Shown piece by piece: positions 21,342-63,846 of a stretch of 64,000 nt of DNA. Every line of letters begins with the position of its first letter. Position 1 is the first letter of the stretch. Source of the DNA: Planctomycetota bacterium (GTDB lineage Bacteria > Planctomycetota > UBA1135 > UBA2386); contig JACKHZ010000013.1 of assembly GCA_020638735.1 (NCBI GenBank), positions 277,694-341,693 on the forward strand, written 5' to 3'. The position numbers and the translations under genes were made by a program. The notes beneath the pieces are model-generated. The model searched no databases and was not told where the DNA came from. It saw only the letters and a program-made list of their open reading frames with translations.

Positions 21342-21861
21342 GCTCGGCAGCGGCCTGACCGAGCTGAGCGCGTCGGCGAGCTCGATCTCGGGGCGCGTGG
21401 TCCGCAACGCCGAGATCGCCACCGAGACCCGTGCGCGCAGCACGTCGGCGGCGGAGCTGTTGCAGCGGCTCGGTCAGACGACGCGCAACATCGGCGAGAT
21501 CACCGGCATGATCCGCGACGTCGCCGACCGCACCAACCTGCTGGCGCTCAACGCCTCGGTCGAGGCCGCGCGCGCCGGTGAAGCTGGCCGCGGCTTCGCC
21601 GTCGTCGCCGGTGAGGTCAAGGAGCTGGCCAAGCAGAGCCGCAGCGCGACCGGCGAGATCTCGGCGCAGCTGGCAGAGATCTCCAACCAGGTCGCCGCGT
21701 CGGTCGAGGCGGTCGACAAGATCTGCAAGGACATCGACGCCGTCGCCGACAACACCAGCGAGGTCGCCGCCGCCGTCGAACAGCAAGCCAGCGTCGTGCA
21801 GGAGCTGAGCATGACGGCCGAGACGCTCGCGTCGCGCTCGGGCGTGATCCCGGCGAATTGA
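21342..21861 (+). pseudogene. 3' fragment of a methyl-accepting chemotaxis protein gene (signalling domain only), 5'-truncated by IS91 fragment C
   Basis: From the IS junction the + frame reads ...[61 protein letters not shown]...[16 protein letters not shown]. This is the highly conserved MCP hairpin-tip signature. No sensor, TM or HAMP part is present. Confidence 0.85.
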
Positions 21862-23934: not shown

Positions 23935-23976
23935 ACTTCGTGTAGCACGGTCGCCCCGACCCCGGAAGACACGCCG

Positions 23977-27000: not shown

Positions 27001-28444
27001 GCATAGGTCGTCCAAGCTGGAGTCCGGCCCACCCGAACCGCACGACCGCGTCGATCCACGATCCTTCGCCCCCCGTCGACCCGCCTTCGGACCCCGCCCA
27101 ACCCCGGCACTCTTGCCGAAATCCCCCTTCCAGCCAACACCCCGCCCCCGCCGCGACCCTCTGGCCACGGCATCAGCTCCCTCACCTCACGCGCCCCACC
27201 ACTCCGCCACTCCCGGCGGCGCTCGCGCCGGCGCTACTTGCGCCACCCCACACGGCAACCCCATCGCCCGCCGCACCTTCTCGATCGCATCCGGCGCGGT
27301 GATCGCCGCCAGCAGCCGACGCACGCCGCCGCAATGCGGACAGACGAGCACGTCGATCGCGAACACCCGCCGCAGCAGTTCCGCCCACGGATAGCGGCGA
27401 CGACGCATCGTCGCGCAACCCGGCCGACCGCCGTTCGGTGCATGCGGGACCGTTCTGCGTCTCCTGCGCAACGCGAGCACCGCCTGCACCGCCCTCTGCT
27501 CCGGCTCGACCTCGACGCCATCGTCCGCCACCACCTCGTCTTCCTCCACCCGCGGTATCACCCGCGAACGCAACCCCGCCGCCGGCGCCAACACGCCGTG
27601 ATACGTCACCAGGTGACGCCGCGGCGGCGGCACCAATGCCAGCAGCCGCTCGATCAGCACCTCCGGCTCCATCACGACGTGTGTCGAACCGTCCTTCCAC
27701 TGCCGCTTCAGCGAGTACGCCACCCGCCCATCTCGTGCTCGTGCCACGCGACCTCCCCGCGGCCGGGCTGCCAGGAGTACACACCGTCGAGCCACACCAC
27801 ATGGAAGTGCACGTTCAGCCGCAGCCCCGAGTCGAACCGCTGCACGAACAACACCGCTCCCGTGCGCGGCCGTGGCAACCCCAGCCGACGCGCGCGCGAC
27901 TCGTAGAACCCCGACACCGCGCCCACCAACACCCGCCGCACCAGCGCACACGCCTCCGCGTCATACGCACACAGCACCCGCAGCCGATGCGGCAGCGACA
28001 ACACCCATTGCCGCACCGGCGCCTCGACCGGAAACACCCGGTCCACCAACCACGCCGCCGTGTCCACCATGCGCCGCGCCCCGCACGACGGGCAGAAGCC
28101 GCGGCCCTTGCACGAGAACGCCACCGCCTCGTCCTTCCGGCACACCTCGCACCACACCCGCGCGAAGCCGTGCGCCAACACCCCGCAGCGCAAGAACGCA
28201 TCCACCTCCCGATGGCAGAACCGCGGCAACGGCCGTTCGCGCTGCTCGAGGCGTAGACGCACCGTCGGCCACGCAGAGGCGACCGCCCGGTAGAGCACCG
28301 ACCGCTCCGGTCGGCGCCGACACCACGTTGCTGCAGCTGCGCGCACATACGGTCAGGTGCACCGCATGCGCCAGCGGTGGCATGGATTCGCCGCGGCACG
28401 CCATCACGCAGTCACACGCACGCGAGCATGGCCTTGCCCTCCAC
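27001..28444 (-). mobile_element. IS91-family element, copy D: oriIS-like end to transposase N-terminus, but with an out-of-frame internal deletion of roughly 0.4 kb (transposase pseudogene); right (terIS-side) boundary uncertain
   Basis: The N-terminal part (27708..28346 ORF) has the Zn-binding domain FLRCGVLAHGFARVWCEVCRKDEAVAFSCKGRGFCPSCGARRM and the Y2 core [17 protein letters not shown]. The C-terminal part (27187..27951 ORF) resumes at DGRVAYSLKRQWKDGSTHVV in another frame. At the junction, ...gccacccgcccatc|tcgtgctcgtgcc skips sequence present in copy B (about 15013-15408). The terminus variant is ..CCTATGC. It is more diverged from A, B and C (e.g. RVIPRVEEDEVVADDGVEVEPEQ). Confidence 0.8.
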
Positions 28445-31820: not shown

Positions 31821-33017
31821 TCAGTTGATGCGGAACGCCATCGCCGAACCGAGCAGGAACGGCGCGGTGACCGTCGCGCCGGCGCCCTGCACGGCGAAGG
31901 TCACCCCGACCAGCAACGGATTGTTCGGCACCGGCAGGTAGAGGTCGAAGCGCTGCGTCGAGGTCAGCGTCTGCGCGATGGCGAACGCGGAAGTCGGATC
32001 GAGCAAGAGGTCGCCGATCGGAGTGCTGATCGGACCCGCCTCCGCGTGCGCACCCAGCATGCCGACGTAGCCGTTCTCGGAGGCGACGGAGAGGCGCGTC
32101 ACCCTGCCGATGGAAAGCGGCGAATCGCACCAGGCAACCGGCGTGACGACCTGACGATCCACCTGGACGAGGTGCGCCTCCGACAACCCCTCGGCGCCGA
32201 GCACCGGCTCGAGCCCGCGGGGGTCGTCGCCGAGGAACTGGCCGAAGAACCCGCCCGCGATCGCCATCGCGCGGTCGAACACCTCCGGACCCGCCGCGCT
32301 GAGCCCGGCGACGTTCATGTGGTCGCAGCTCCAGTCCATTCGGTAGTGGAACTTGAGCCCCTCCTTCGGCGCCAGGTACTCGTAGAACGGCTGCGCGTGC
32401 AGCAGCGGCGGTGTGATCTGGTCACCTTCGCCAGAGACGATGCCGAACGGGGCGTGCACGCTCGCCGCCGGCAAGCCCGGGTCGTGCGGCGCGAGCGCCA
32501 GCGCGCACTTGTAGCCCGGATTGCAGAGCGGCCCCGGCACGTCGTACATCACGTAGGCCGCGACACCGCCGCCCATCGAGTGCCCCATCACGCCGACCCT
32601 CTTCATGTCGAGCCGCTGATAGAACGGCGAAGCCGGGTCGCTGTTGGTCGCGGCCAACGCGCCGAACATCGCCCGCCCGTCGTACTCGAGCGCCAGATAG
32701 CTCCACTGGCCCGTGTTGAGCATCACGGTGACGAAGCCGCGGCTCGCCATGCGATCGCCGATCGCCGCGTAGTCGCTGCCGACGAAGCTGTAGCCGTGCA
32801 AGAACACGATCACGGGGCATCTGCCGACGTGCGGGCTCATCGGCACATCCTGGCCCCCGACGTCGGCCGGATAGAACACCTCGGCATCCAGCACGGGCGT
32901 GCCGTTGCCGGTGGTGTTGGCCCAGGCGACGTCGCGCATCCCGACGCCACCCACCTGCGCCGTGGCGATGGACGCCGTGGCGACGATCGCCAGCAGAAGT
33001 GCCCGGTTGTTGCGCAT
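31821..33017 (-). CDS. secreted alpha/beta hydrolase, cutinase/polyesterase- or chlorophyllase-like (GHSMGG), with shared C-terminal domain
   Basis: The signal peptide is MRNNRALLLAIVATASIATAQ. The hydrolase core is PVIVFLHGYSFVGSDYAAIGDRMASRGFVTVMLN, with nucleophile elbow VGVMGHSMGGGVAAY. Candidate acid and His residues are in SGEGDQITP and SCDHMN. The C-terminal ~100 aa (...FDLYLPVPNNPLLVGVTFAVQGAG....LLGSAMAFRIN) resemble the shared domain. Confidence 0.8.
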   Translation of the reverse strand: MRNNRALLLAIVATASIATAQVGGVGMRDVAWANTTGNGTPVLDAEVFYPADVGGQDVPMSPHVGRCPVIVFLHGYSFVGSDYAAIGDRMASRGFVTVMLNTGQWSYLALEYDGRAMFGALAATNSDPASPFYQRLDMKRVGVMGHSMGGGVAAYVMYDVPGPLCNPGYKCALALAPHDPGLPAASVHAPFGIVSGEGDQITPPLLHAQPFYEYLAPKEGLKFHYRMDWSCDHMNVAGLSAAGPEVFDRAMAIAGGFFGQFLGDDPRGLEPVLGAEGLSEAHLVQVDRQVVTPVAWCDSPLSIGRVTRLSVASENGYVGMLGAHAEAGPISTPIGDLLLDPTSAFAIAQTLTSTQRFDLYLPVPNNPLLVGVTFAVQGAGATVTAPFLLGSAMAFRIN

Positions 33018-37168: not shown

Positions 37169-37349
37169 CAGCAATCTGGCACGGCGCCGCGAAAATGCCC
37201 GCGGCGCGGCGCGGGGCCCGGAGCGCGGATCTCGCCATGACATGGCGTTCGCCCAGCAGCCCACGCGCGGTGGCCTTCCGACCCGGCTGCACCGCTCGAC
37301 GACCTCGGGTAGGTTGTCAGGCCTCGCCTGCCAGCGAACGCCACCGACG

Positions 37350-39677
37350 ATGCGCCTACCTTCCCCTGCAGTCTCCCTGATCTCCGCCGCGGCGCTGTCG
37401 GTCGCGGTCGCCAACCTCGCGCCGCTCTCGACCTCCACCGACACGGCGATGCCGGGTACGCAGCCGCTCGAGGCCGCCTTGCTCGGCCCGTTGCCGGCCT
37501 GCGACGGATGCCACGGCTACTACGACCAGGACGTCGAGCCGGTCGAGAACTGGATGGGCAGCATGATGTCGCACGCCGGCCGCGACCCGGTGTTCTGGGC
37601 GGCGCTCGGCGTCGCCGAAGGCGACCTGCCCGGGGCCGGCGACTTCTGTCTGCGCTGCCACGCGCCGCGCGGCTGGCAGGAAGGGCGCGCCTTCCCGACC
37701 GATGGCTCGGCGCTCGATCCGATGCTGGACCAGTACGGCGTCGAGTGCGGCCTGTGCCATCAGCTCGTCAACCCGGACAAGAGCGAACACGGCGGCGTGC
37801 AGTACCTGCCCTACGTCGCCAACGACGGCGGCAACCCGGTCGAGGGCTACTACGGCAGCGGCATGGCCGTGCTGGCCGGCAACCAGACACGCTACGGTCC
37901 GTACGCCTCGACCACCGCGGGTCACCCGTTCGTGCAGTCGAAGTTCCACCGCTCCGCGGAGATCTGCGGCACCTGTCACGACGTCTCCAACCCGGTCACC
38001 GGCGACCTCGCCGCCAACAACGGCGCGATGACGCCGCTGCCGCCCGGTCAGTCGAGCGGCGTGTCCGGCGCGCCGGTGACCCAGAAGGCGGCGTTCCTCA
38101 ACCCGCCGTTCGCCTACGGCATCGTCGAGCGCACGTTCAGCGAGCACTTCGCCAGCGCGCTGTCGACCACGCCGGTCGCCAACTACGCGTCGCTACCGGG
38201 CGACCTTCAGCGCGGCGCGATCAAGCGCGCCTACGACCAGGCGCAGCTCGCCGGCATGTCGGGCGATCACGAGGACGGCACCGCGCGCTTCTTCTCGTGC
38301 CAGAGCTGCCACATGGAGCCCGTGGTCGGCGAAGGCGCGGCGTTCGGCATCTCGCCGGTGCGCTACGACCTGCCGAAGCACGACATGACCGGCGGCAACA
38401 CCTGGGCGCCGCTGGCGATCCAGTGGCTCGACGGCCAGTCGCCGAGCCTGCTGCGCCTCGGCAAGAACATGTCGCCGACGATGACCGCGGCGATGGACCG
38501 CGGCGTGCTTCGCTCGCGCGCGGCGCTGCAGCGCGCGGCGGCGCTCGACGTGCAGAACGTCGACACGCTGCGCGTCACCAACCTGACCGGCCACAAGCTG
38601 CTGACCGGCTATCCCGAAGGCCGTCGCATGTGGCTGCGCATCCGCTGGATGAACGAGCAGCTGCAGGTGATCCAGGAGCAGGGCTCGTACGGCAGCTTCC
38701 AGACGACCGTCAACGGCCAGAACTACACCGTCGAGTCGATCACCGACCCGAACGCCCACGTCTACGAGGCCAAGCTCGGCATCACCCAGGACTGGGCGCT
38801 GCAGCTGCTCGGCATGGGCGTGTCGCCGTTCACGCCGCTCGGCTTCGACCGCGTGACGGGTGCGCCGACGACGGACCTCGCGACGCTGGCGACCAGCGCG
38901 CCGGGCACCGCCGAGCCGACCTTCCACTTCGTGCTCAACAACACGCTGCTCGAGGACAACCGCATCCCGCCCTACGGCTTCGACCGCGACGAGGCCGAAC
39001 ACCGCAACGCGCTGCCCGTGCCGGCGACGGCGTTCGGCAACCCGGCGCCGGGCGGGACCTACGAGCACTTCGACGACGTGCAGCTGACGCCGCCGCCCGG
39101 CGCCACGCGCGCCGAGATCGAGCTGATGTACCAGACCGCGAGCTGGGAGTACATCCAGTTCCTGCTGCTCGCCAACCCGGGCACCAGCGCCTTCCTCGCC
39201 TCGGCCGGGCAGGAGCTGTTCGACGCCTACATGGCCACCGGCAAGTCGACGCCGGAGGTGATGGCGACCGCGCGCTGGTGCGAGATGCCGGGCTCCAACG
39301 AAGACGCCGTCCTGCGCACGTCGATCGACAGCGCGACACCGGACGCGACCTGCGCCAAGCGGGTCGAGGGAGGCGACGTGATGCACTTCGAGATCACCAG
39401 CCCCAACGGCACCCACACCAACAGCCTCGGCCTGCTGGTGCTCGAGCTGCACCAACCGAGCGCGCCGCCGATCCCGGGCCTGATCCCGGGCCTGTGGCTC
39501 GACGAAGCCCACGGCCTGGTCACGATCAACGGCGTGCCGCCGGGTGGCTGGAGCTGGAGCATCCAGCTGCCCTCGAGCGTGGTCGGCAGCCTGCGCTGGC
39601 AGGCGCTGCTGTGCAACGCGACCCCGGCGAACGGCATCTTCGCCGCGACCGACGCGTTCGACTTCTACCAGGACTGA
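37350..39677 (+). CDS. secreted multiheme c-type cytochrome-like protein (5 CxxCH motifs) with shared C-terminal domain
   Basis: The ATG at 37350 gives MRLPSPAVSLISAAALSVAVA, a signal peptide. The CxxCH motifs are CDGCH, CLRCH, CGLCH, CGTCH and CQSCH. The C-terminus is ...WSIQLPSSVVGSLRWQALLCNATPANGIFAATDAFDFYQD. Confidence 0.8.
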   Translation: MRLPSPAVSLISAAALSVAVANLAPLSTSTDTAMPGTQPLEAALLGPLPACDGCHGYYDQDVEPVENWMGSMMSHAGRDPVFWAALGVAEGDLPGAGDFCLRCHAPRGWQEGRAFPTDGSALDPMLDQYGVECGLCHQLVNPDKSEHGGVQYLPYVANDGGNPVEGYYGSGMAVLAGNQTRYGPYASTTAGHPFVQSKFHRSAEICGTCHDVSNPVTGDLAANNGAMTPLPPGQSSGVSGAPVTQKAAFLNPPFAYGIVERTFSEHFASALSTTPVANYASLPGDLQRGAIKRAYDQAQLAGMSGDHEDGTARFFSCQSCHMEPVVGEGAAFGISPVRYDLPKHDMTGGNTWAPLAIQWLDGQSPSLLRLGKNMSPTMTAAMDRGVLRSRAALQRAAALDVQNVDTLRVTNLTGHKLLTGYPEGRRMWLRIRWMNEQLQVIQEQGSYGSFQTTVNGQNYTVESITDPNAHVYEAKLGITQDWALQLLGMGVSPFTPLGFDRVTGAPTTDLATLATSAPGTAEPTFHFVLNNTLLEDNRIPPYGFDRDEAEHRNALPVPATAFGNPAPGGTYEHFDDVQLTPPPGATRAEIELMYQTASWEYIQFLLLANPGTSAFLASAGQELFDAYMATGKSTPEVMATARWCEMPGSNEDAVLRTSIDSATPDATCAKRVEGGDVMHFEITSPNGTHTNSLGLLVLELHQPSAPPIPGLIPGLWLDEAHGLVTINGVPPGGWSWSIQLPSSVVGSLRWQALLCNATPANGIFAATDAFDFYQD

Positions 39678-54375: not shown

Positions 54376-57354
54376 TCAGCGCGCCGGAGGGAAGGTCACG
54401 CGCCCGCCGTGCTCGTCGACGCGGACGCTCTGCCTGCGCGTGTTCCAGTAGCCGGCGATCTCGGCCCGGAGTTCGCCCGGCGGCACCGCGACCTCGAACT
54501 CCAGCTGTGGGCCGACGTGACCGTGGAACCACGTGTCGAGGTCGCGCCAGGCGAGCAGCGTACCGTCGGCGTCGCGAACCAGCAGCGTGTCGCTCCAGCA
54601 CATCTGCGCGCGCTGCTCGACGTCCAGCTCGACGACGACCCGCAGCGGTGACGCCGGCTCGAGCGCGAACGCCACCTCGGTCGCCGCACCGACGCCGACG
54701 TGCACCGGCGTCGGCGCGACACGCAAGCTGCGGCTGCTGCCGCGCAGTTCGTAGTCCCCGGCCGGCACCTCGGCGTGCGAGAACGAACCGTCGCGCCTGC
54801 GCCGCAGCACGAAGCTCTCACCGCGCCCGACCGCGAACAGCGCCAGCTGCAGGTCCTTGGGCGCTACCAGCTCACCCGCAGCCACCGCGTGCACGCGGTG
54901 CGGCGGCCCCATCGTGATCGTGCCGAGATCGACGTCGCCGCCGGCCGGCACCTCGAGGTCGTTCCACCGCACCGAGGGACGGCCCGTCACCGAGACGGTG
55001 GCCGTCAGGTGCCCCGGGGCGAACGGCCCGATCTCGAAGCGGCCGTTCTCGTCGCAGCGGGCCGTCGGCCCGGTCCATCGCAGTCGGCGCTGCACGACCA
55101 TGATCTGTGCGCGCAGCGGCTGACCGTTCTCGTCGACGACAAGACCGCGGACCCAGTGCCGCGACCGCGCGCGGTCCGGCACGACGACGTCGACGACGTT
55201 GCCGTCCGGCACGACAGCGGGCACGCGCCAGATCGCTAAGAACGGATGCAGCTCGTAGGCAGCGGCGTCGAACAACGCGACCTCGATCGGTCGATCGCCG
55301 GGCACGCGCCACGTCATCGCCTGTAGCGTCAGGCCGTCTTCGTCGGTCGGCACCGCCTGGCCGACAGGCATGCCGTTCGGGTCCGAGACCTGCACCCGCC
55401 ATCCCGCCAGCGGCGCACCGCGCTCGTCGCGCAGCCGCACGCGCAGCGGCAGCAGCGCCGGCGCCGCGGCGTCCCAGGTCGACGGCCGGCCGCTGCGCAG
55501 CTCGATCACTTCGCGCACGTCCGCGTCGCCGATGTCGGCCGTGACCACCCACATGCCCGGCAGCAAGCCGTCGAACGAGAACACGCCGCGTCCCCACGAG
55601 CGCAGCGACCGTTCGCAGAACGGGAACGCGTGCGCGCCGTCCGCCAGCATGCGCAGCGAGACCTGTGATCCGCCCGCCGGCGCGCCGTCGGCGCGGGTCG
55701 TCGTGCCCTGCAGCGACGCGCCTTCGTCGACACGCACCTCGATCGGCGCGCTGCTCGGCAGGTCCAGTCGCACCATGCCGATGCGCTGTCGGTCTCCGTC
55801 GACGACCCGGGCGACCACCGCGACGTGCCCCGGTGACAGCCAATCCAGCACGAACGAACCGTCCGCCGCGGTGCGGTCGTACCACGGCTCCGGGATGTCG
55901 CTGCCGAACGAGATCGTGCCGAGCTCGGCGGCGACGGGCTCGCCGCGTTCGTCGACCACCCTGCCGCGCAGCTGCGGACCAGCTGCGCCGAGGCGCAGGC
56001 GACACTTCAGCACGCCGTCGACGACGCTCGTGTTCGTCCACGCCGACACGGCGTGACCGGAAGCCCGCGCCCGCAGCTGCGGTGCGCGCTGACCACGGCG
56101 ACGCAACACGCCGTCGACCCCGGTGACGCCCAGCGGCGTCATGTGCCGATATGCCCCCTGGGTGGCGTTGCCCTCCACCTCGGCGCCGACGACCGGTGCG
56201 CCGAGCGCGTCGACCACGGTCACCTGCAGTGGTGTCTCGGCCGGGACCTGCACCTCGAGCTCGTGATGGAACGTCGCCGGAACGGGGTTGGGGTACCAGA
56301 TGCCTTGTGCTTCGGTGCCGCTGACGAACACCTCGTAGGTCGTCGCGTGCGCACAGTCCTCGAACGTCACGTCCCCGCTGGCGTCGGTGTCGAGGCAGCG
56401 GACGTCGTCGCCGTGGACCAGCATGACCACCTCACCGGCCTCCACCACCGGCTCGTCGGCGTGGCGAACGTGCACGGTGATCGCGCGGCGCGGCCGCGCC
56501 TCGACCGGCGGCGCGATCACCGGCGGCGGCGGCAGTTCGACCGCGTCCCGCTGACCGACCGTCGTCACCGGCTCGGCCTCGGCGCTCGCCGGAGCGACCG
56601 CAACCGCGCCCGCCGCGGCGGGCGGCGCCAGACGTTCGGGCCGCCACAGCATCGCGACGGCGGCGATCGCGACGACCGCCGTCGCAGCCGCCGCGACGCG
56701 CATCAACCGATGCGGCACCACAGGCTTCGCCGGCACCCGCGTCAGCAACGTGTCGCGCATCGCGTCGAGCCGCGTCGCCGACAGCGCCATCGCGCCTGCC
56801 GTCGTCGCCAGCCCGGCCGGCAACAGCGCGCGCAGCCGGTCGAGCCCGCGCACGATCTGCGTTCGCACGGTGCCCGCCGGCCGCCCGAGCGTCGCGCCGA
56901 TCTCGGCCGCGGTCAGGCCGTGCTGCACGTGCAGCCCGACCGCCTCGCGGAACGGCGACGGCAGCTCGGCGAGCGCGTTCTTCAGCAGCTCGGCGAACTC
57001 GCCGTCGACGCTGCCGCGCACCGGGTCGTCGCCGGCCAGCAACGTCTCCAGCTGCGCCGCCCCGGTCATCTGTCGCCGCGCCGTGCGCTGCATGGTGCGC
57101 GCGTGGTTGGCGAGCACGCCGAGCAGCCACGGCAGCAGCGGCCGCGCCGGATCCCACCGGTCGGCGTGCGTCATCGCCGTCAGCCAGGTGGTCTGCAGCA
57201 GGTCCTCGGCGCGGTGCTGGTCGCCGCCGGCGAGGTAGCAGGCGACGCGACCGAGCTCCGGCGCGGTGCGGTCGAAGACCCCAGCCAGCGCGCGCGCATC
57301 GCCGCGCTGACGGAAGTCGAGGAACAGGGATTCGACGGTGGCAGGAGTCTTCAC
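54376..57354 (-). CDS. membrane-tethered ECF sigma factor fused to a TM helix and a CarboxypepD_reg-like ectodomain array (paralogue 2)
   Basis: 992 aa with a GTG start. Sigma-2 region: LGRVACYLAGGDQHRAEDLLQTTWLTAMTHADRWDPARPLLPWLLGVLAN. Sigma-4 region: VGLHVQHGLTAAEIGATLGRPAGTVRTQIVRGLDRLRALL. TM helix: VAAAATAVVAIAAVAML. Repeats include LRGRVVDERGEPVAAEL, VRLRDERGAPLAGWRVQV..TDEDG and VRGLVVDENGQPLRAQIMVV...CDENGRFEIGPFAPG. Confidence 0.85.
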   Translation of the reverse strand: MKTPATVESLFLDFRQRGDARALAGVFDRTAPELGRVACYLAGGDQHRAEDLLQTTWLTAMTHADRWDPARPLLPWLLGVLANHARTMQRTARRQMTGAAQLETLLAGDDPVRGSVDGEFAELLKNALAELPSPFREAVGLHVQHGLTAAEIGATLGRPAGTVRTQIVRGLDRLRALLPAGLATTAGAMALSATRLDAMRDTLLTRVPAKPVVPHRLMRVAAAATAVVAIAAVAMLWRPERLAPPAAAGAVAVAPASAEAEPVTTVGQRDAVELPPPPVIAPPVEARPRRAITVHVRHADEPVVEAGEVVMLVHGDDVRCLDTDASGDVTFEDCAHATTYEVFVSGTEAQGIWYPNPVPATFHHELEVQVPAETPLQVTVVDALGAPVVGAEVEGNATQGAYRHMTPLGVTGVDGVLRRRGQRAPQLRARASGHAVSAWTNTSVVDGVLKCRLRLGAAGPQLRGRVVDERGEPVAAELGTISFGSDIPEPWYDRTAADGSFVLDWLSPGHVAVVARVVDGDRQRIGMVRLDLPSSAPIEVRVDEGASLQGTTTRADGAPAGGSQVSLRMLADGAHAFPFCERSLRSWGRGVFSFDGLLPGMWVVTADIGDADVREVIELRSGRPSTWDAAAPALLPLRVRLRDERGAPLAGWRVQVSDPNGMPVGQAVPTDEDGLTLQAMTWRVPGDRPIEVALFDAAAYELHPFLAIWRVPAVVPDGNVVDVVVPDRARSRHWVRGLVVDENGQPLRAQIMVVQRRLRWTGPTARCDENGRFEIGPFAPGHLTATVSVTGRPSVRWNDLEVPAGGDVDLGTITMGPPHRVHAVAAGELVAPKDLQLALFAVGRGESFVLRRRRDGSFSHAEVPAGDYELRGSSRSLRVAPTPVHVGVGAATEVAFALEPASPLRVVVELDVEQRAQMCWSDTLLVRDADGTLLAWRDLDTWFHGHVGPQLEFEVAVPPGELRAEIAGYWNTRRQSVRVDEHGGRVTFPPAR

Positions 57355-57435
57355 GGCGTTCTGCCCCTGCTTGCCGGAGCCCGCGCCAGTGCGCCCGGCA
57401 ACTGCGGAATTCTCGCCGCGACGCGGCGCGCGAGT

Positions 57436-57861
57436 CTACCGCGGCGCGCGGAGCACCAGGTTGTCGCCGCGCACGACGAACACCGCCTCGTCGCGCGGCA
57501 GCAACCGCCCGGGGGCGATGAGCGTCCGGCCGACGTCGTAACTCGCCACGACCTTGCCGCCGGCGACGAACACCAACAGCTGGTACTCGTCGAAGTTCTG
57601 CTGCTGCGATCGCGCTGCCCCGCCCCAGGCGATGCCGATCGCCCGGTCGACGTCTTCCGGCGACTGGTAGGGCGTCGCGACGTACATCGCGTCCCAGTCG
57701 AAGCCGGCCAATTGGTCCATGCGCACCTCGGCGCCTTCGTGCTTCTTCACCGCCGCGCGCAGCACGTCGTCGAGGCGCAGCCGGCCCTGCCACCACACGG
57801 CCGCGCCGCCGAGCAGCACGACGCCGACGAAGGCCAGGGTGCCGAGCCTAGAACGCGCCAA
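57436..57861 (-). CDS. hypothetical small membrane-anchored protein
   Basis: 141 aa with an N-terminal TM helix (LGTLAFVGVVLLGGAAVWW). The soluble domain has normal composition (DQLAGFDWDAMYVATPYQSPEDVDRAIGIAWGG...YQLLVFVAGGKVVASYDVG). Its start overlaps the 3' end of the upstream propeller gene by 14 nt. Confidence 0.6.
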   Translation of the reverse strand: MARSRLGTLAFVGVVLLGGAAVWWQGRLRLDDVLRAAVKKHEGAEVRMDQLAGFDWDAMYVATPYQSPEDVDRAIGIAWGGAARSQQQNFDEYQLLVFVAGGKVVASYDVGRTLIAPGRLLPRDEAVFVVRGDNLVLRAPR

Positions 57862-59299
57862 CGGTCAGGCTCAGCGCGTTGGTCGCGGTGATCGGGCCGA
57901 AGTCGAGCGTCGGCGTGACCTCGAACGACACCCACTGCTCGCGCAGCTCGACACCTGCCAGCGCCGGGTCGTCCGGCAGCGTCAGCGTCGACGACGCCGA
58001 GCCGCCGCTCGGCAGCAGCACGCCGATCACATCGGGCGCCGCCTGCAGCACGCAGCCGGGCACACCGGTCGCGAACACCGCGTCGAGGCCGACCGACACC
58101 GGCGAGAAGCCGTGCACGACGACGACGATCGACGACGACGGCAGACCGCTGCCAGTCGTCTCGACGACGCCGCCGGTCCACGGCAGCGACGCCGTGATCG
58201 CGCCCTGGCACGCGCCGCCGAGGTCGGCGACGAGCGCTTCGCAGGTCGTCGTCAGTCCCATCACCGACGGCAGCTGCACGCCGCCCGCGCCGAAGAACTG
58301 ACCGCCGGCGGCGACGTCGCCGTCGGGCATGACCAACAGGTCGTTGCACGCGCCGGACGTCGCCGGCCCGATCGGCGTCCACGTCGTGCCGTCGAAGCGC
58401 TTCAGCGAACCCGAGATGCCGCCGGTGACGAGATCGCCGTCGGGCAGCGCCACGACGACGGTCTGGTAGTCGAAGTTGCCAGGCACGATCGCCCACGTCG
58501 CGCCGTCCCAGACGAACGTGTCGGCGTTGGCGGCGACCAGCGAGCCGTCGGCGCGCGCGGCGAGGTCGCGCACGGTGCTCGACAGCCCGCTGCCGAACGC
58601 GACCCACGCGCTGCCGTTCCACCGCGCGACCTTGCCGGCCATGACGCCGCCGATCTGCGAGAAGCTGCCGCCGGCGACGAGCTCGCCGCCGGGCAGCTGC
58701 GCGAACGCGCGCACGTCGCCGTTGGCGCCGGCGCCGAACGCCGACCAGGCGCCTCCGTCCCAGCGGGCGATGTTGGCCGCGGCGGTGCCACCGGCCATGT
58801 TGAAGAACCCGCCGACGACGAGGTCCCCGTTCGGCAGCTCGTTCAGCGCGTAGACGTAGGCCACCAGCGAGCTGAACGTCACGCCGCCGCCCACCGCCGA
58901 CCACGACGCGCCGTCGAAGCGCGCCAGCCGGTTGACGGTCACGCCGTCGATCGTCGTGAACTCACCGCCGACCACGAGGGCGCCGTCGGACGTGGCGAGC
59001 ATGCACAGCGGGCGGCCGTTGGTCGTGCCGAGCGTCGTCCACGACGAGGACTGTTCGTCCCATTGCACGACCGCGCCGCTGGTCCCCGCGCCGCGCCCGG
59101 CGACGAGCTGCGCCGTCAGCGGTCCAGCGCCGTCGGCGTCCCAGGCGGCCATCGACCAGACCTGCGTCGAGGCGGTGTCGAACGGACCATCGGTCCGCCA
59201 CTGCGTCGTGCACTGCGCCACGACGGAGGTCGCGAACGCCGAGGTGGCGGCCGCGCACGCCAACGTTCGCAGCAGATTGCCGGGCGGGATCAGGAGCAT
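57848..59299 (-). CDS. secreted beta-propeller repeat protein (paralogue of 6744..9158) with shared C-terminal domain
   Basis: 483 aa with signal peptide MLLIPPGNLLRTLACAAATSAFATSVVAQ. Blades include ARFDGASWSAVGGG, IARWDGGAWSAFGAG, VARWNGSAWVAFGSGL and KRFDGTTWTPIGP. The C-terminus is ...STLTLPDDPALAGVELREQWVSFE....GPITATNALSLTVGAF. Confidence 0.85.
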   Translation of the reverse strand: MLLIPPGNLLRTLACAAATSAFATSVVAQCTTQWRTDGPFDTASTQVWSMAAWDADGAGPLTAQLVAGRGAGTSGAVVQWDEQSSSWTTLGTTNGRPLCMLATSDGALVVGGEFTTIDGVTVNRLARFDGASWSAVGGGVTFSSLVAYVYALNELPNGDLVVGGFFNMAGGTAAANIARWDGGAWSAFGAGANGDVRAFAQLPGGELVAGGSFSQIGGVMAGKVARWNGSAWVAFGSGLSSTVRDLAARADGSLVAANADTFVWDGATWAIVPGNFDYQTVVVALPDGDLVTGGISGSLKRFDGTTWTPIGPATSGACNDLLVMPDGDVAAGGQFFGAGGVQLPSVMGLTTTCEALVADLGGACQGAITASLPWTGGVVETTGSGLPSSSIVVVVHGFSPVSVGLDAVFATGVPGCVLQAAPDVIGVLLPSGGSASSTLTLPDDPALAGVELREQWVSFEVTPTLDFGPITATNALSLTVGAF

Positions 59300-59420
59300 G
59301 GGACTGGCGAGCAGGTAGAGGGACGGGGGAACAGTCTAGGCGAGCGGCGCAGACCTGCGCGGTGGCTCGACGCCATCGCCAGTTGTCTGGACGCCGCGGG
59401 CGGGTTGCGCAAAAGCAGCC

Positions 59421-62400
59421 TCACGGCAGACGCAGCGGCGAAAGCGCCATGCCAGCGGGCATCGGCAGGGTGACGTTCACCCGCACCGGCGCTCCGCCGG
59501 GCAACCTCGCCGAGACGGTGTAGTCACCGGGGGGCAGCACGACCTGCAGTCCAGACTCCCGGTCGGCGGGCTGGCTGCGGCCCCGCACGCTGACGTAGCG
59601 ACGCAAGGCGCCCTCGCCTTCGATCTGCCACATCACCTTGAAGTCGACGCGCGGCACCGTCGGCACGGCGAACATCCGCAGCGTCGCGCCGCGCTCGACG
59701 ACGGCGAACGCGACCTCGTTGACCCGATCCGGCGCCACCTCGACGAGGCGCTGATCGACGTAGCCCGCTTCCTGAACGAGCAGCAGCCGATAGCGGCCCG
59801 CCGGCAGCACCAGCTCACCGACCGGTTCGCGCAGGCGGCAGAGACCGAACATCGGGCCCAGCTCGTCGGCGTAGGCATAGACCTCGGCCGGCGCCCCGGC
59901 GCTGGCGCTCGGGGCGAGGATGCGGACCGTGCAATCGGTGTCCGCGTCCACCACGCCCAGGTCCTGTTCGTCGTCGGCGCGCAGCGTCACGTCGCGACGC
60001 AGCGTGATGCGGCGCAGGCCGGCGATCAGGTGGTATTCACCCGGCGGCGCCACGAACGAGAAGCCGCCGTCGGCGGCGACCGGGGCGTAGACGGCTTCGC
60101 CCGAATCGCGCTCGAAGAGGCCGACCTGCTTCTCCTGCAGCCGCGCGAGCCGTCCCCGCAGCGTCGCCGTCGGCCGTCGCGCGGGCGGCAGCCGCAGCAC
60201 GACGTCGTCGCCGGGTCGCGCGCCGAAGTGGCGCAGCAGCACCATCGCCGCCGGATCACGACCGAGCTGCAGCAGCAACTCGAAGCGTCGGTCCGTCAGC
60301 CCTTCGAGCACGAACGCGCCGCGCTCGTCGAGCTCCGCGAAGAACGGGCGACTGGCCACGGCGCGGGCGCAGACGAGGCCGCCGCAGAAGGGCCGGCCCG
60401 CTTCGTCGAGCACGACGCCACGCACGACCCCTCGCTCGCCGAACGTCGGCGACCATGACAGCTCGGCTCCGTCGGCGACGACCAGTTCGCGTTCGACGTG
60501 CTCGCCGCGCGACGACTGCGCCTGCAGCAACACGTCGCCTTCGGGCACACCGCGAAGCTCGTAGCTGCCGTCCGCGCGGGCGACGCAGGTCGGCCAGAAC
60601 CAGGTCGGCGCGCGCGCGCCGACGTCCGCGCCGAGTTCGATGGCGCGCGCCATCGCCGCCGCCGTCCCACCCTGGCGCGGACCATCGGGCGCGCCGTCCT
60701 CGCGGGTGGCAGCGAGCCCGCCGAACACACCGCCGCAGACCGCGCCGTCGCGCAGCTCGACCTTCACCGTCGTACCGAGGTGTCCCGGCTCCACCGTCAC
60801 CACGGCGGGCGCGAGCCCCGCCGCGCGCACGAACAGCTGCATCGCGCGGTCGAGGGGTGCCTGCCGGCACGTCGCGACGCCGCGTCCGTCGGTGCGGCCG
60901 AGCCACGGCAGGCGCATCGCGCGCGTCTTGTCGTTCTCGTCGGCGAACGCGTTCGCCAGCGCGCCGCCGAGCTGCAGCGACGCGCCGACCACCGGTCGGC
61001 CGCGCCCGTCGAGCACCTCGACTCCGAACTCGCCGGCCGCATCGCCGAGCTGCAGCTCCATCTCCTCGCCGTCGCCGACGCGCGGCACCTGCCGCAAGCC
61101 GCTCGACAACACGCCGTCGAGGCGCGCCTCGAGGTAGCGGCCGCGCGTCGCGCCCGGCACGCGGAACGCGCCGTGATCGTCGGTCGCAGCCACCGGTAGA
61201 CGCAGCTCGAAGCTGTCGGCGAACGTCGAGTAGACGATCGCGCCGCTGACGCCGACGCCGCGCGCATCGACGACGCGCCCGCTGACGTCGACGCCGTCGG
61301 CCATCGGCACCGCGACCGTCACGTCCGGCCGATCGACGACGAACGACACTTCGTCGCCGCGGTTGGCCTGCAGCTGGTAGAGGCCGTAGGGCACGCCGAG
61401 GATCGTGTGCTCGCCGCGCTCGTTGGCGACGACGGGCAGCGCCGCGACGAACGCGTCCGGGTCGGTCGGCACCGTGACGTAGCCGTTCCACGAGAACGGC
61501 GCCGCCGCGAACTCGCCGACCAGATGCACGGTCGCGGTCGGCGCCTCGCTCGCAGGCTGCGGCGCCGCCGGCTCGCGCGCCGCGTCACGCCCCGGCGACG
61601 GCGCCTCGACGACCTCCTTCGCGGCCGTGCCCTTCGCGACCACGCCCTGCGCGGCGACGTCGACGCTGGCCGGCGCGCCGGTACCCGGAGCCGCGTCGGG
61701 CCACCACGCCATCGCGACGACGAGCGCCACTGTCGTCGCGCCCGACGCGACCACCCAACGCAGCCACGGAACACCGCGGGCGCTGGCCATGCCGGTGGCA
61801 GCCGCCCCGAGGGCCGCGGACGCCGATGCGCTGCCCGCCGCGGCGAGGTGCCGCGCGCCCTCCGCGACCACCGCTTCGCGAACGTGCAGGAGGCTGTCCA
61901 TGCCGCGCAGCAGCGCGCCGAACGCGACCGTCATGCTCGCCGGAAGCCGTCGCCGCACGACCTCGAGGCTGCGGTGGATCCAGCTCTTGACGGTGCCGAC
62001 CGGCCGCGACGTCGCGTGCGCGATCTCGGTCGGCGTCATGCCGTGCACGAGGTTCAGCGTCATCACCTCGCGCTGCGGCACCGGCAGGCCGGCGATCGCT
62101 TCGTTGAGCGAGGCGACGAACTCTGCTTCGATCGCCGCGTCGCTCGGCTGTCGCGAGGTCGGCGATGGCTCGTATTCGCTGCCGGTGACCTCGCGTGCGC
62201 GACGGCGCCGGTCGTTGCGCGTGACGTTGACCAGGATGCCGACCAGCCACGGCTCGAGCGGCCGTTCGCCGTCGTAGCGGTCGGCGCGCTGGATGGCGGT
62301 CAGGAACGTCTCCTGCAGCAGGTCCTCGGGCTGTTGCTGCTTGCCGGCGACGTGGCTGGCCACCAGCAGCAGCTGCTGCGCGACCAGATCGAACACCTGC

Positions 62401-62471
62401 GCGAGCGCGGCGGTGTCGCCTTCGTCGCGGAAGCGGAGGAAGGCCAGGCGGGCGTCCGGTCGGATCTGCAT
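59421..62471 (-). CDS. membrane-tethered ECF sigma factor fused to a TM helix and a CarboxypepD_reg-like ectodomain array (paralogue 3)
   Basis: The preferred ATG at 62471 gives MQIRPDARLAFLRFRDEGDTAALAQVFDLVAQQLLLVASHVAGKQQQPEDLLQETFLTAIQRADRYDGERPLEPWLVGILVN. Sigma-4 region: VMTLNLVHGMTPTEIAHATSRPVGTVKSWIHRSLEVVRRRL. TM helix: WVVASGATTVALVVAMAWW. Repeats include VSGRVVDARGVGVSGAIVY...TDDHGAFRVPG, VVRGVVLDEAGRPFCGGLV and others. The 97 upstream codons of the track ORF look non-coding. Confidence 0.85.
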   Translation of the reverse strand: MQIRPDARLAFLRFRDEGDTAALAQVFDLVAQQLLLVASHVAGKQQQPEDLLQETFLTAIQRADRYDGERPLEPWLVGILVNVTRNDRRRRAREVTGSEYEPSPTSRQPSDAAIEAEFVASLNEAIAGLPVPQREVMTLNLVHGMTPTEIAHATSRPVGTVKSWIHRSLEVVRRRLPASMTVAFGALLRGMDSLLHVREAVVAEGARHLAAAGSASASAALGAAATGMASARGVPWLRWVVASGATTVALVVAMAWWPDAAPGTGAPASVDVAAQGVVAKGTAAKEVVEAPSPGRDAAREPAAPQPASEAPTATVHLVGEFAAAPFSWNGYVTVPTDPDAFVAALPVVANERGEHTILGVPYGLYQLQANRGDEVSFVVDRPDVTVAVPMADGVDVSGRVVDARGVGVSGAIVYSTFADSFELRLPVAATDDHGAFRVPGATRGRYLEARLDGVLSSGLRQVPRVGDGEEMELQLGDAAGEFGVEVLDGRGRPVVGASLQLGGALANAFADENDKTRAMRLPWLGRTDGRGVATCRQAPLDRAMQLFVRAAGLAPAVVTVEPGHLGTTVKVELRDGAVCGGVFGGLAATREDGAPDGPRQGGTAAAMARAIELGADVGARAPTWFWPTCVARADGSYELRGVPEGDVLLQAQSSRGEHVERELVVADGAELSWSPTFGERGVVRGVVLDEAGRPFCGGLVCARAVASRPFFAELDERGAFVLEGLTDRRFELLLQLGRDPAAMVLLRHFGARPGDDVVLRLPPARRPTATLRGRLARLQEKQVGLFERDSGEAVYAPVAADGGFSFVAPPGEYHLIAGLRRITLRRDVTLRADDEQDLGVVDADTDCTVRILAPSASAGAPAEVYAYADELGPMFGLCRLREPVGELVLPAGRYRLLLVQEAGYVDQRLVEVAPDRVNEVAFAVVERGATLRMFAVPTVPRVDFKVMWQIEGEGALRRYVSVRGRSQPADRESGLQVVLPPGDYTVSARLPGGAPVRVNVTLPMPAGMALSPLRLP

Positions 62472-62559
62472 GGTGGGCGAACCCCGATAGTCGCCGCAGC
62501 GCGTCCCGGTTGCAGGAACTTCGCCGGCGGCGCGAGGCGAGGGTCTAGGATGCGCGACC

Positions 62560-63846
62560 ATGGTCATCCCGCCCATCCCCCGGCACCTCGCGAAGCTGTC
62601 GGTCTCGCTGCTGCTGCCGGTGTTCGCGTCGGCCCAGGACGATCCGACCGCGGACTCGACGATCCCGTGGCAGCAGGACCTCGCCGCCGCGCGCGCGCAG
62701 GCCGCCGAACGCCACGCGCCGCTGTTCGTCGTCTTCCGCTGCGAGCGTTGAAGGGACTGCAACGCCTTCTACGGCCAGTTGGGCCGTGAATCCGAGCTGG
62801 ACACCGCCGCCGCCGACTACGTGCCGGTGCGCATCACCAACCTCGCTGAGCTCGACGTCGCCAACCTGCGCTTCGACTTCGACCTGACGTTCGCGGCGGT
62901 GCTGATGCACGCCGACGGCACGGTCTACCACCGCTACGGCAGCCGCGGCCCCGACGCCGCCGACGGCTACCTGTCGCTGTCGTCGCTGGCGCAGCTGCTG
63001 CGCGACACGCTGCCCGAGCACCGTGAGTACGACCGCGCGCCGAAGCCGCCCGCGCCGGCCGCGGCGCAGCGCGCGATCGAGCTGCCGTGGCTGCAGCAGC
63101 GCCTCGCCGCCGGCCAGAAGATCGACTGCGTGCACTGCCACACCGTCAACGACGCCGAGTTCCGCGGCCGCGGCGAGCGCTTCGCGCCCGACGACGACGA
63201 CGTCTACCGCTTCCCCGATCCGGCGCGCGTCGGCATCTCGCTCGACCGCGAACACCAGCGCCGCGTCACCGCCGTGCGCGACGGCTCGCCCGCAGCGGAG
63301 GCCGGCATCGTCGCCGGCGACGAACTGCTCGCGCTCGGCGCGCAACGCTCGGTGCGCACGCTCGCCGACGTGCAGTGGGCGCTGCACCACGCGCCCGCCG
63401 CCGGCGGTGCGCTGCCGATCGCGTGGCGGCGCGACGGCGCCGAGCAGCATTCGGTGCTGACCTTGCCCGCGGGCTGGAAGCGCTGCGATCCCGCCGACTT
63501 CGCGTGGCGACCCTACAAGTGGAACCTGTCGCCGGCGCCCGGCTTCGGCGGCCCCGCGCTGACCGCCGCGGAGAAGCGCCGGCTCGGCGTCGCCGACGAC
63601 CGCTTCGCGTTCCGCGTCAACTACCTCGTCGACTGGGGCGACCGCGCCAACCGCGGCAAGGCCGCGCGCGCGGCCGGCCTGCAGAAGGGCGACGTCGTCG
63701 TGTCGTTCGCCGGCAAGGACGACTTCGCGTCCGTCGAGCACTTCCACGCCTGGGTCCGGCTGACGCGCGCCGTCGGCGAGCAGGTCGAGCTCGTCGTGCT
63801 GCGCAACGGCGAACGGCACACGCTGCGCTACGCGTTGCCGCGCTGA
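62560..63846 (+). CDS. secreted thioredoxin-fold + PDZ-domain protein with an in-frame TGA (62749-62751) at the first position of the redox motif: candidate selenoprotein (UxxC), otherwise a nonsense-mutated pseudogene
   Basis: Track ORFs 62560..62751 and 62779..63846 are in the same frame and separated only by this TGA. The first piece has the signal peptide (MVIPPIPRHLAKLSVSLLLPVFASAQ) and the start of the Trx fold (IPWQQDLAAARAQAAERHAPLFVVFRCER). The read-through gives FRCER-U-RDCNAFYGQ, which aligns with FWAEW-C-GPCKMM of thioredoxins. The second piece has no signal peptide and only a TTG start. PDZ-like segments follow (VTAVRDGSPAAEAGIVAGDELLALG; AARAAGLQKGDVVVSFAG). Confidence 0.7.
62770..62788 (+). 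promoter_or_regulatory. candidate bacterial SECIS-like hairpin downstream of the in-frame TGA at 62749
   Basis: UACGGCC-AGUUG-GGCCGUG forms six Watson-Crick pairs plus one G-U pair, with a 5-nt loop that has G at loop position 2. The loop begins 25 nt after the UGA. No U-tract follows. Confidence 0.45.

Follow-up and report, generated by a model that had tools for sequence, protein, structure and literature searches.

The window analysed here, a 64,000-nucleotide (64-kb) stretch of DNA from a wastewater planctomycete, contains four minus-strand genes, two of which encode an ECF sigma domain fused to a membrane-anchored ectodomain, and a third fusion gene of the same kind on the plus strand. 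The genes and the parts of their products that are referred to below are as follows:

59421-62471, minus strand: sigma fusion paralogue 3 (par3), 1016 aa
57848-59299, minus strand: beta-propeller exoprotein, 483 aa
57436-57861, minus strand: small membrane-anchored protein, 141 aa
54376-57354, minus strand: sigma fusion paralogue 2 (par2), 992 aa
23977-26994, plus strand: sigma fusion paralogue 1 (par1), same architecture
61932-62471, minus strand: ECF sigma domain of par3, residues 1-180
61701-61763, minus strand: transmembrane helix of par3, residues 237-257
59424-61574, minus strand: all-beta ectodomain of par3
56815-57354, minus strand: ECF sigma domain of par2
56647-56706, minus strand: transmembrane helix of par2, residues 217-236
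57851-58183, minus strand: C-terminal domain of the propeller protein, unannotated, ~110 aa

An earlier reading of this DNA, made from the sequence alone, had proposed the four genes as a co-directional cluster. All four open reading frames are present, as is par1 at 23977, and the 14-nt overlap that had been noted between the propeller gene and the small gene (57848-57861) is real. An independent gene caller gives the same four products (1016, 483, 141 and 992 aa) in two further assemblies of this organism, and the calls for the fusion genes are identical across three assemblies. The start codon of par3 at 62471 is supported because all of its orthologues (8/8) start with MQIR.

The N-terminus of the fusions is a complete, bona fide ECF (group 4) sigma2-sigma4 module. 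In the Pfam search par2 and par3 match PF04542 (Sigma70_r2) and PF08281 (Sigma70_r4_2) above the cut-offs and give no match to sigma region 1 or region 3, and all three paralogues match TIGR02937 (sigma70-ECF) at 61-72 bits against a cut-off of 42.9. The AlphaFold2 model of the N-terminal part (pLDDT 85.5) has SigE, SigW, SigL, SigH, AlgU, CnrH and SigK as its best Foldseek matches, and phmmer against the PDB finds SigE at 4.6e-14 for the sigma domain; the assignment of the N-termini to sigma-70 regions 2 and 4 is thus borne out by both score and fold. Compact anti-sigma-bound ECF structures fit the model better (Foldseek TMt 0.55-0.60) than RNAP-bound ones (0.36-0.42), and this compact state may be the default AlphaFold prediction for ECF sigmas. 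As had been proposed, the sigma parts of the three paralogues are homologous and the ectodomains diverged (35-49% versus 22-28% identity), and the string RPAGTVRTQ[LI]VRGL is found in two of them, par1 and par2.

It might be supposed that the sigma-like N-terminus is a degenerate relic carried by surface or adhesin proteins, whose pilin, adhesin and macroglobulin-type beta-sandwich arrays the ectodomain does resemble in Foldseek, or that the fusions are assembly or frameshift artefacts which join sigma and anti-sigma genes. Such a reading is extremely improbable and is already contradicted by the data: sigma2/sigma4 is the most conserved part of the protein, with invariant or near-invariant D51, Q54, W76, R158-P159-G161-T162-V163 and R169, orthologues of full length are known from hundreds of independent assemblies, and the gene calls agree in all three assemblies compared.

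The sigma module is followed in par1, par2 and par3 by the LP-x-G/S motif that had been recognized by eye, the proline of which (P179) is invariant in an alignment of 64 sequences. This motif opens a conserved cytoplasmic linker of ~40 aa (LPxG...LAAVRxxVLA), so that sigma4 and the membrane are about 35-55 residues apart. The LAAVRxxVLA segment, which lies ~15 residues past the invariant LPxG, forms an amphipathic helix (residues 193-206 in par2, pLDDT ~91 in the AlphaFold2 model) and is conserved in the alignment at L196, A197, V199, R200 (59/64), V203 and L204. Each fusion then has one strong hydrophobic helix flanked by KK, at about residues 217-236 in par2, 237-257 in par3 and 242-260 in par1. 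In the AlphaFold2 model of par2 a disordered Ala/Pro-rich stalk of ~50 residues lies just outside the membrane (residues about 235-289, pLDDT <50) and leads to eight beta-sandwich (Ig-like) domains that are all-beta (residues 290-988, pLDDT >90, pTM 0.68), an extension of ~700 aa. Pfam matches in the extension are confined to CarboxypepD_reg (PF13620, which scores 109.3 bits in par2 and 76.7 in par3, the cut-off being 32.3) and Big_1. The Pfam search finds no anti-sigma domain in the fusion proteins and no FecR or DUF4880 match at E<0.1, and linker columns 172-240 contain no conserved Cys or His among the 64 sequences. No recurrent neighbour gene, separate anti-sigma gene or conserved protease gene is found among the neighbour clusters of the family loci; HtrA-like PDZ proteases adjoin a par3 orthologue at a single locus, L074.

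The three paralogues belong to a large, previously uncharacterised, Planctomycetota-wide family of single-chain, single-pass membrane ECF sigmas, and the expanded family that the sequence-only reading had suspected is borne out by its ECF score and fold, its constant architecture and its multicopy occurrence. The sigma-TM-ectodomain order and the position of the TM helix (residues 217-245, near ~225) are constant in ~60 loci from many Planctomycetota MAGs, and the best 150 of 2,198 profile matches, which are mostly 830-1110 aa long, all span the TM helix; at 50% identity the family has no fewer than 150 clusters and may reach about 2,200. A genome usually carries several copies, and members come from wastewater, soil and marine Planctomycetota. 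The par3 orthogroup (loci L003 and L073-L078, 32-70% identical) forms a clade with 99% support, par2 has orthologues at 76%, 57% and lower identity, and par1 groups with L020 (70% identical) and L038 in a clade of its own.

The proposed cluster holds as a gene order but not as one conserved module, since what is conserved beyond the closest relative is the par3-propeller pair only; the position of par2 alongside is seen only in the window genome and one close relative. The propeller protein has a Sec-type signal peptide (residues 1-28), DUF5122/Rax2 propeller matches in Pfam, and a C-terminal tag that is indeed shared, being a ~110-aa domain that recurs in four or more further exoproteins of the window. 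A propeller gene is kept in the +1 position beside the par3 orthologues at L003, L073, L076 (60% identical), L075 and L074 (Kelch type). The small protein, which has an N-terminal TM anchor (residues 6-24), is a lineage-specific ORFan with a sole homologue in the close relative GCA_041398585.1. Its gene is probably co-transcribed with the propeller gene because of the 14-nt overlap; one exact metatranscriptome contig (57707-57933, n=1) spans the junction between the two and is weak evidence.

ECF promoters are typically autoregulated and bipartite, with an AAC-containing -35 element and a spacer of about 16 nt. A new result of the present analysis is a predicted family-specific bipartite promoter of ECF type upstream of these genes, which on the sequence evidence takes the form TGCAACC-N14-CGACTAT (par3 type) or G[YG]RGCAC-N14-G..AA (par1/2 type). 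The predicted elements in the window are:

62487-62521, minus strand: predicted par3 promoter (A/T-rich AAGTTCC; -35 TGCAACC at 62514-62508; 14-nt spacer; -10 CGACTAT at 62493-62487)
59382-59416, minus strand: predicted propeller-operon promoter, par3 type (GCTTTTG; CGCAACC at 59409-59403; 14-nt spacer; AGACAAC at 59388-59382)
57369-57411, minus strand: predicted par2 promoter (A/T-rich GAATTCC; core GGCGCAC at 57395-57389; 14-nt spacer; -10-like GCAAGC at 57374-57369)
23942-23948, upstream of par1: predicted par1 core, GTAGCAC

The shared upstream motif for which a search had been suggested is present before par3, the propeller gene and par2 as regards its bipartite N14 layout, but its -35 core differs between the par3 type and par2. 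The predicted par3 promoter lies 15 nt before the ATG, in the same position in 8/8 orthologues, and the propeller-operon promoter starts 5 nt past the par3 stop codon. These two sites are the only matches in the 64-kb window to yGCAACC-N14-nGAyWA (2 versus 0.11 expected). Five loci (the window, L003, L073, L076 and L074) have this motif at the same place past the fusion stop, ahead of the +1 propeller gene, which makes the propeller a predicted par3 target. Of the suggestion that the adjacent exoprotein genes are regulated targets, the part concerning the propeller gains support from these five loci, while the small membrane protein drops out as a general feature. The par1/2-type motif, G[YG]RGCAY-N14-G..AA, is found before family genes in 52/66 upstream regions, between -25 and -54, and is conserved at positions outside the anchors (+18 C in 44/49, +21 G in 38/49, +25 purine in 48/49), although its -10 is degenerate; 51 of the 62 matches to its PWM in 1.63 Mb are upstream of family genes, and the par2 promoter, with a score of 23.0, is the joint best match in the window. 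Between the predicted -10 elements and the start codons there are only about 8-22 nt, so that the leaders would be very short.

It is also conceivable, if decidedly unlikely, that the upstream element is the operator of another shared regulator or a housekeeping promoter or leader typical of the lineage. The conserved block of the par1/2 type, GAWTYC-N2-GYRGCAC, spans ~16 nt, which is more than a sigma4 footprint, and in a subset it lies within short inverted repeats (CCATG-TAG-CATGG, for example). The metatranscriptome contigs are few; one from a relative, from a run guessed to be RNA, reads through the motif. The element, however, hardly occurs outside family genes and the exoprotein genes directly beside them, which speaks against a housekeeping promoter, and for either form of this alternative the constant 14-nt distance to a second, GACwAT-like box, common to both motif types, is difficult to accommodate. 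The core at the -35 position, moreover, changes at just those points where the sigma4 recognition helix and the sigma clade also do: it is TGCAACC in the par3 clade, GGCGCAC in the par2 clade (7/7) and GTAGCAC in par1, the GCAACC group constitutes one sigma-domain clade (99% support), and the core covaries with the sigma4 helix (RPVGTVKSWIHRS versus RPAGTVRTQxVRG), with the qualification that clade-wise differences of this sort represent few independent evolutionary events. To judge from the promoter sequences, each copy seems to activate the gene that encodes it, and one copy, par3, seems to activate the neighbouring secreted propeller as well.

Taken as a whole, the explanation that we regard as probable, with considerable reserve, is a membrane-tethered, autoregulated single-chain sigma family with clade-specific promoters and proteolytic release. 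The product of each fusion gene would recognise the ECF-type promoter before that gene, giving positive autoregulation, and the differing -35 cores of the orthogroups (TGCAACC, GGCGCAC, GTAGCAC) suggest that the three paralogues form insulated channels. The par3-type promoter would drive the secreted propeller as well, with the overlapping small gene probably carried along. By analogy with IutY and RseA-type systems, the sigma would be kept inactive at the membrane in the resting state, possibly with the linker helix serving as a short anti-sigma element within the same chain; the sensing of a signal by the ectodomain would lead to cleavage of the stalk and then to intramembrane cleavage, and the sigma thus freed would bind RNA polymerase. 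Precedents for release by proteolysis are IutY and ECF48/52/53 (PMC8999054, PMC5411451).

Proteolysis could be dispensed with if the anchored sigma were switched by conformation or oligomerisation through the TM and linker helices and recruited RNA polymerase at the membrane, in the manner of ToxR or CadC. The short, highly conserved and confidently helical linker is what is expected of an element that passes on a signal, the ectodomain is modelled as a defined assembly (pTM 0.68) and not as loose beads, and the conserved neighbours include no protease gene. This mode of action is nevertheless unlikely: the 50-residue disordered Ala/Pro stalk resembles a cleavage-accessible region and would pass on a conformational change poorly, a fixed anchor is hard to square with the need of a sigma to accompany RNA polymerase while the promoter is opened, and IutY, the only characterised membrane-fused sigma, is freed by Prc and RseP (PMC8999054, PMC5411451). 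A bolder version of the release model, which we offer as speculation with little expectation that it will hold in full, posits an anti-sigma-free one-polypeptide class in which a two-helix linker acts as a class-II-like anti-sigma, the -35 cores have co-diversified with the sigma domain, and the propeller feeds back on the ectodomain as ligand or co-sensor. If it were true, the anti-sigma-like linker, insulated cores and propeller feedback would make up an exoprotein-sensing loop without a described counterpart.

ECF sigmas to which regulatory extensions are fused have been described as the “one-component systems” among sigma factors. To our knowledge very few of them have been studied, and among the transmembrane ones experimentally only IutY and, partly, SCO4117. 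The present family is a large one of uniform architecture without partner proteins, and it comes with concrete predictions, namely a promoter for each of three orthogroups, one target gene and a mutable conserved linker helix. With different -35 cores among the paralogues of a single genome, the family could also be a source of orthogonal membrane-to-gene switches.

Several known systems share parts of this design. In the SigI/RsgI systems of Clostridium thermocellum, paralogous channels with distinct extracellular sensing modules are each autoregulated and control secreted-protein genes, the sigma and the membrane anti-sigma being separate proteins. The likeness lies in the multiple paralogous channels per genome; SigI, however, is not an ECF of the clade found here, and sigma and anti-sigma do not form one chain. 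IutY of Pseudomonas putida, an ECF243 sigma/anti-sigma hybrid of cell-surface signalling whose sigma is freed by Prc and RseP (PMC8999054, PMC5411451), is likewise a single polypeptide that runs from an N-terminal ECF sigma through one TM helix to an extracytoplasmic C-terminal part. It differs in having a FecR-type anti-sigma domain, whereas no FecR or anti-sigma domain was detected in the fusions, which have instead a linker of ~40 aa and an ectodomain of eight CarboxypepD_reg-like domains; and it works with a TonB-dependent transducer, a gene for which is absent from the called neighbours (window, L003, L004, L073-L078) and from the recurrent neighbour clusters. The actinobacterial groups ECF48, ECF52 and ECF53 (e.g. 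SCO4117), for which proteolytic activation has been proposed (PMC5826349, PMC8999054), also join an ECF sigma to TM helices and to a region outside the cytoplasm that is sensory or binds carbohydrate. They belong to another phylum, have different ectodomains, and carry between sigma and TM a zinc-finger (ZAS-like) anti-sigma domain, the HxxxCxxC zinc-binding motif of which is absent from linker columns 172-240 of the 64 sequences.

The duplicated ECFs of planctomycetes, whose C-terminal extensions are diverse, and ECF57 in particular (5.3 per genome, with long C-terminal extensions and no anti-sigma gene; PMC7826278, PMC7671368, PMC8999054), resemble the fusions in their Planctomycetota origin, multicopy occurrence, long extensions and want of an anti-sigma gene. 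No already characterised ECF group was found to which the family maps, and from ECF57 it appears to be set apart by described features. ECF57 has WD40-like repeats and two conserved cysteines that link sigma2 and sigma4 (PMC8999054), whereas the extension here gives CarboxypepD_reg and Big_1 matches and eight modelled beta-sandwiches, with no WD40-like repeats; Cys is present in at most 19 of the 64 sequences at any alignment position, and residues 1-180 of par3 contain none. The fusions are a variant of the known ECF sigmas with transmembrane C-terminal extensions.

The four minus-strand ORFs that the sequence-only reading had grouped into one co-directional cluster are borne out at the following positions:

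59421-62471, minus strand: par3, a fusion of an ECF sigma factor to a linker, a transmembrane (TM) helix and an ectodomain, 1016 aa
57848-59299, minus strand: gene for a secreted DUF5122/Rax2-type beta-propeller, 483 aa
57436-57861, minus strand: small gene for a membrane-anchored protein, 141 aa
54376-57354, minus strand: par2, a second sigma fusion, 992 aa

All four coding frames are backed by a frame-specific GC pattern (the window has 72% G+C), an independent gene caller gives products identical to these in two further assemblies of the same organism, and the propeller gene and the small gene do overlap by 14 nt. A longer upstream ORF for par3, extending to 62762, is ruled out as the gene, because every orthologue has a start equivalent to the MQIR at 62471.

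The N-terminal regions of par2, par3 and the third paralogue par1 (23977-26994, plus strand) score as ECF sigma factors: Sigma70_r2 and Sigma70_r4_2, as well as CarboxypepD_reg, exceed their Pfam gathering scores in par2 and par3, and all three proteins pass TIGR02937, the NCBIfam model of the ECF superfamily. A single, strongly hydrophobic helix lies in each fusion 40-60 residues C-terminal of sigma-4, and no anti-sigma domain is found among the Pfam matches. The sigma parts are homologous and the ectodomains diverged, as had been read from the sequence, with identities among the paralogues of 35-49% and 22-28%, respectively. Across 64 aligned family members the motif L178-P179-x-G181 hardly varies and conservation extends to the linker helix L196-A-A-V-R200-x-x-V-L (R200 in 59 of 64); the TM helix is preceded by a KK pair and closed by W237, and the linker contains no conserved Cys or His.

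Residues 1-270 of par2, modelled with AlphaFold2 from a 64-sequence alignment (pLDDT 85.5), form the ECF helices followed by a weak helix (180-188), a confident one (193-206) and the TM helix (215-236), and the Foldseek matches of this model are exclusively ECF sigmas. The model fits the compact, anti-sigma-bound states of SigW/RsiW, SigK/RskA and CnrH/CnrY (TMt 0.55-0.60) better globally than RNAP-bound ECF states (TMt 0.36-0.42), which is weak evidence, at the level of a predicted structure, for a closed resting state of the par2 sigma. In the full-length AlphaFold2 model (pLDDT 85.9, pTM 0.68) a disordered Ala/Pro stalk at residues 235-285 is followed by about eight beta-sandwich domains at 290-988, and a whole-model Foldseek search returns nothing beyond generic multi-beta-sandwich matches (Ig-like arrays, TM <0.25).

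The proposal of an expanded family of single-chain transmembrane sigma factors is supported by the distribution of this architecture. A single sigma-4 peptide pattern, scanned against one genome per species and giving lower bounds on copy number, finds 66 loci, all in planctomycete MAGs, with 3-4 copies in several genomes; almost all encode a protein of 800-1370 aa with a TM helix at residues 217-245. A profile of sigma, linker and TM helix matches 2,198 cluster representatives (50% identity) at E<=1e-30, and the best 150 of these, mostly 830-1110 aa long, all align through the TM helix. The named relatives all belong to Planctomycetota, as MAGs or as isolates such as Pla163, and carry no other annotation than "sigma-70 family RNA polymerase sigma factor". 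The source organism is found in activated-sludge and wastewater metagenomes; a metagenome scan with par3 as the lone query gives nothing beyond two distant ECF matches. In a tree of sigma domains par1, par2 and par3 fall into three separate clades with 98-100% SH-aLRT, each of which includes orthologues from other genomes, and the duplications that produced them are, judging from these sequences, old. Full-length orthologues of par2 (76%, 57% and down to 42% identity) and of par3 (70%, 50% and down to 37%) match over 97-100% of the protein, so within an orthogroup the ectodomains are conserved, whereas those of different orthogroups have diverged.

The cluster as a whole is less widely conserved than its parts. 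The complete four-gene order recurs solely in the closest relative, GCA_041398585.1, and is absent around the 57%-identical par2 orthologue, while the pairing of par3 with a propeller is retained in other loci: unlike fusions of the par1/par2 type, par3 orthologues have a secreted beta-propeller gene directly downstream, of the DUF5122 type and 60-82% identical to that of the window in L003, L073 and L076 (loci from other genomes), and of the Kelch type in L075 and L074. Loci of the par1/par2 type have no conserved partner gene, any one neighbour family being seen in at most 7 of the 58 loci. The most frequent neighbours from outside the family are ECF/Ser-Thr-kinase pairs (5-7 loci), in which an ECF of about 200 aa, beside fusions in 5 loci, is paired in several loci with a TPR Ser/Thr kinase; such a kinase (Pkinase + TPR_12), neighbouring fusions in 7 loci, lies in the window at 9858-12530 on the plus strand.

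Several further features of these neighbourhoods may be recorded. In L074, the sole locus with a candidate site-1 protease adjoining a fusion, two co-directional genes for trypsin-like/PDZ (HtrA/DegS-like) proteases (4900-6935) lie directly upstream of a 44%-identical par3 orthologue. Transposase-like ORFs that are nearly identical to one another (98.8% over 333 aa), together with a fragment, flank the par1 region:

14469-16064, 20340-21443 and 27708-28346, minus strand: transposase-like ORFs/fragment

At 21865-22935 (minus strand) a 356-aa CarboxypepD_reg ORF, which has no sigma domain, TM helix or signal peptide, is similar to the C-terminal half of ectodomains in the family (best match 34% identity, to a 1020-aa protein of L017); a family-type core GTCGCAC (22966) stands 31 nt upstream of it, and it may represent a derivative without the sigma part or a remnant beside an IS copy. 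Divergent from par3, at 62560-63846 on the plus strand, ORFs of 63 and 355 aa form one frame split by a single TGA (62749-62751) in the context FRCER-TGA-RDCNAFY, a CxxU motif. This frame encodes a signal peptide, a Thioredoxin_7-like domain that holds the motif and two PDZ domains. L003 retains the TGA and the peptide that follows, with AGG->AAG (R->K) immediately past the TGA; a hairpin, ACGGCC-AGUUG-GGCCGU, is situated 21 nt downstream, and the frame is a candidate selenoprotein gene. The propeller ends in a domain of about 110 aa (57851-58183, minus strand; ..VPGC..APD...LPxDPALxG...Q......TNAL...) that matches no Pfam or NCBIfam model and is also C-terminal in the propellers of L073, L075, L004 and L078 and in other genes of the window:

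6651-9158, plus strand
17634-19409, plus strand
31821-33017, minus strand
37242-39677, plus strand

Its carriers are otherwise unrelated (DUF5122 and FG-GAP propellers, a PETase-like hydrolase and a cytochrome c protein), and the domain probably serves as a sorting or secretion tag not described before.

A shared ECF-type motif upstream of these genes, which had been suggested as a check, is present as bipartite elements at the par3, propeller and par2 sites (62487-62521, 59382-59416 and 57369-57411, respectively), all of them predicted promoters. In 8 of 8 par3-type genes the element lies 14-22 nt before the ATG and consists of an A/T-rich patch, the core TGCAACC at the -35 position, 14 nt (13 in L078) and a -10-like second box nGAC(T/A)A(T). 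It is repeated between the fusion stop codon and the propeller gene in the window and in L003, L073, L076 and L074; in L075 a gap of 26 nt separates the fusion from the start of the propeller, an operon-like arrangement, and in L078 the motif instead precedes a small secreted protein gene. The pattern GCAACC-N15-GAYWM occurs in the 64-kb window exactly twice, upstream of par3 and of the propeller, against 0.11 expected. L078 also encodes, near its par3-type fusion, an 847-aa DUF5122 propeller (7911-10454, minus strand), with a par1/2-like element GTGTCGCAT-N14-CGACCATG at its start that scored below the PWM threshold. The A/T patches of the predicted par3 promoter (62515-62521; AAGTTCC, L003 AAGAACC) and the predicted par2 promoter (57405-57411; GAATTCC, L003 AAAAACC) both have TT in the window and AA in L003, a close relative, within nearly identical intergenic sequence.

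The par1/par2 type has the same layout with another core, GAWTYC, 1-2 nt, G[YG]RGCAC, 14 nt and G..AA(T). This core is found at -25 to -54 in 52 of 66 upstream regions (about 16% estimated by chance), and unanchored positions are also kept (+18 C in 44/49, +21 G in 38/49, +25 purine in 48/49). Because a strict regular expression is uninformative (4 matches in the window, 3.4 expected), a PWM was used, which gives 62 matches in 1.63 Mb, 46 of them upstream of called family genes and a further 5 at family genes overlooked by the crude gene caller. The distance from A/T patch to second box is equal in the two types, and some second boxes are identical across them, such as TCGCGACAAT in L024 and L073. 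A sigma-54 reading of GGCGCAC/GTAGCAC is ruled out, as no site has the -24 GG (G does not occur at +2) and there is no GC at the -12 distance; GAATC as -35 with GYRGCAC as -10 is rejected because their spacing is just 2-4 nt. Inverted repeats around the TAG, which could have indicated a 5'-UTR RNA hairpin, are confined to a subset of upstream regions.

The core varies with the sigma clade, being TGCAACC in 8/8 par3-type and GGCGCAC in 7/7 par2-type genes and mostly GTAGCAC in the par1 type, and it also follows the sigma-4 recognition helix (RPVGTVKSWIHRS in the par3 type vs RPAGTVRTQxVRG). Autoregulated ECF sigmas that have diverged in -35 specificity are expected to show such co-variation, and since it is accompanied by an element shared between par3 and the propeller gene, the propeller is a predicted par3 target. 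The earlier suggestion that the exoprotein genes are regulated targets is to this extent retained for the propeller; the small protein is an ORFan. No sigma-70-like promoter was found in the four-gene cluster, and metatranscriptome contigs over these loci are sparse.

The family combines its fusion architecture with a conserved linker helix, the absence of a partner anti-sigma and a co-varying, family-specific bipartite element. In the mechanism that we propose, each fusion gene would be switched on by its own sigma product in positive autoregulation, par3 would control the propeller-small operon, and the three paralogues would act as insulated channels. For release from the membrane, the disordered stalk would be cut first (site-1 cleavage) and then the TM helix (site-2 cleavage), by analogy with IutY, a sigma/anti-sigma hybrid of Pseudomonas putida that is an analogue for proteolytic release from the membrane (PMC8999054, PMC5411451); the main rival to release by proteolysis is that the fusions signal without cleavage.

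Membrane-fused planctomycete ECFs are not new as a general idea. Among the regulatory types of ECF sigmas, that with a C-terminal extension ranks second in frequency, with 19 groups (PMC7826278), and multicopy ECFs with diverse extensions are known from planctomycetes (PMC7671368), among which the ECF57 group has 5.3 copies per genome (PMC7826278). No description of the sigma-TM-CarboxypepD_reg architecture was found in the literature searched, the supplementary group descriptions of PMC7826278 being outside its scope, and what adds interest to the family is that specific promoters and a target gene are predicted for it. IutY and the actinobacterial groups ECF48/52/53 are transmembrane sigma fusions like the present proteins, but IutY has a FecR domain and a TonB-dependent transducer, ECF48/52/53 a zinc finger, and ECF57 a cysteine pair and WD40 repeats; none of these defining features, which are those examined for each system, was found in the present family.
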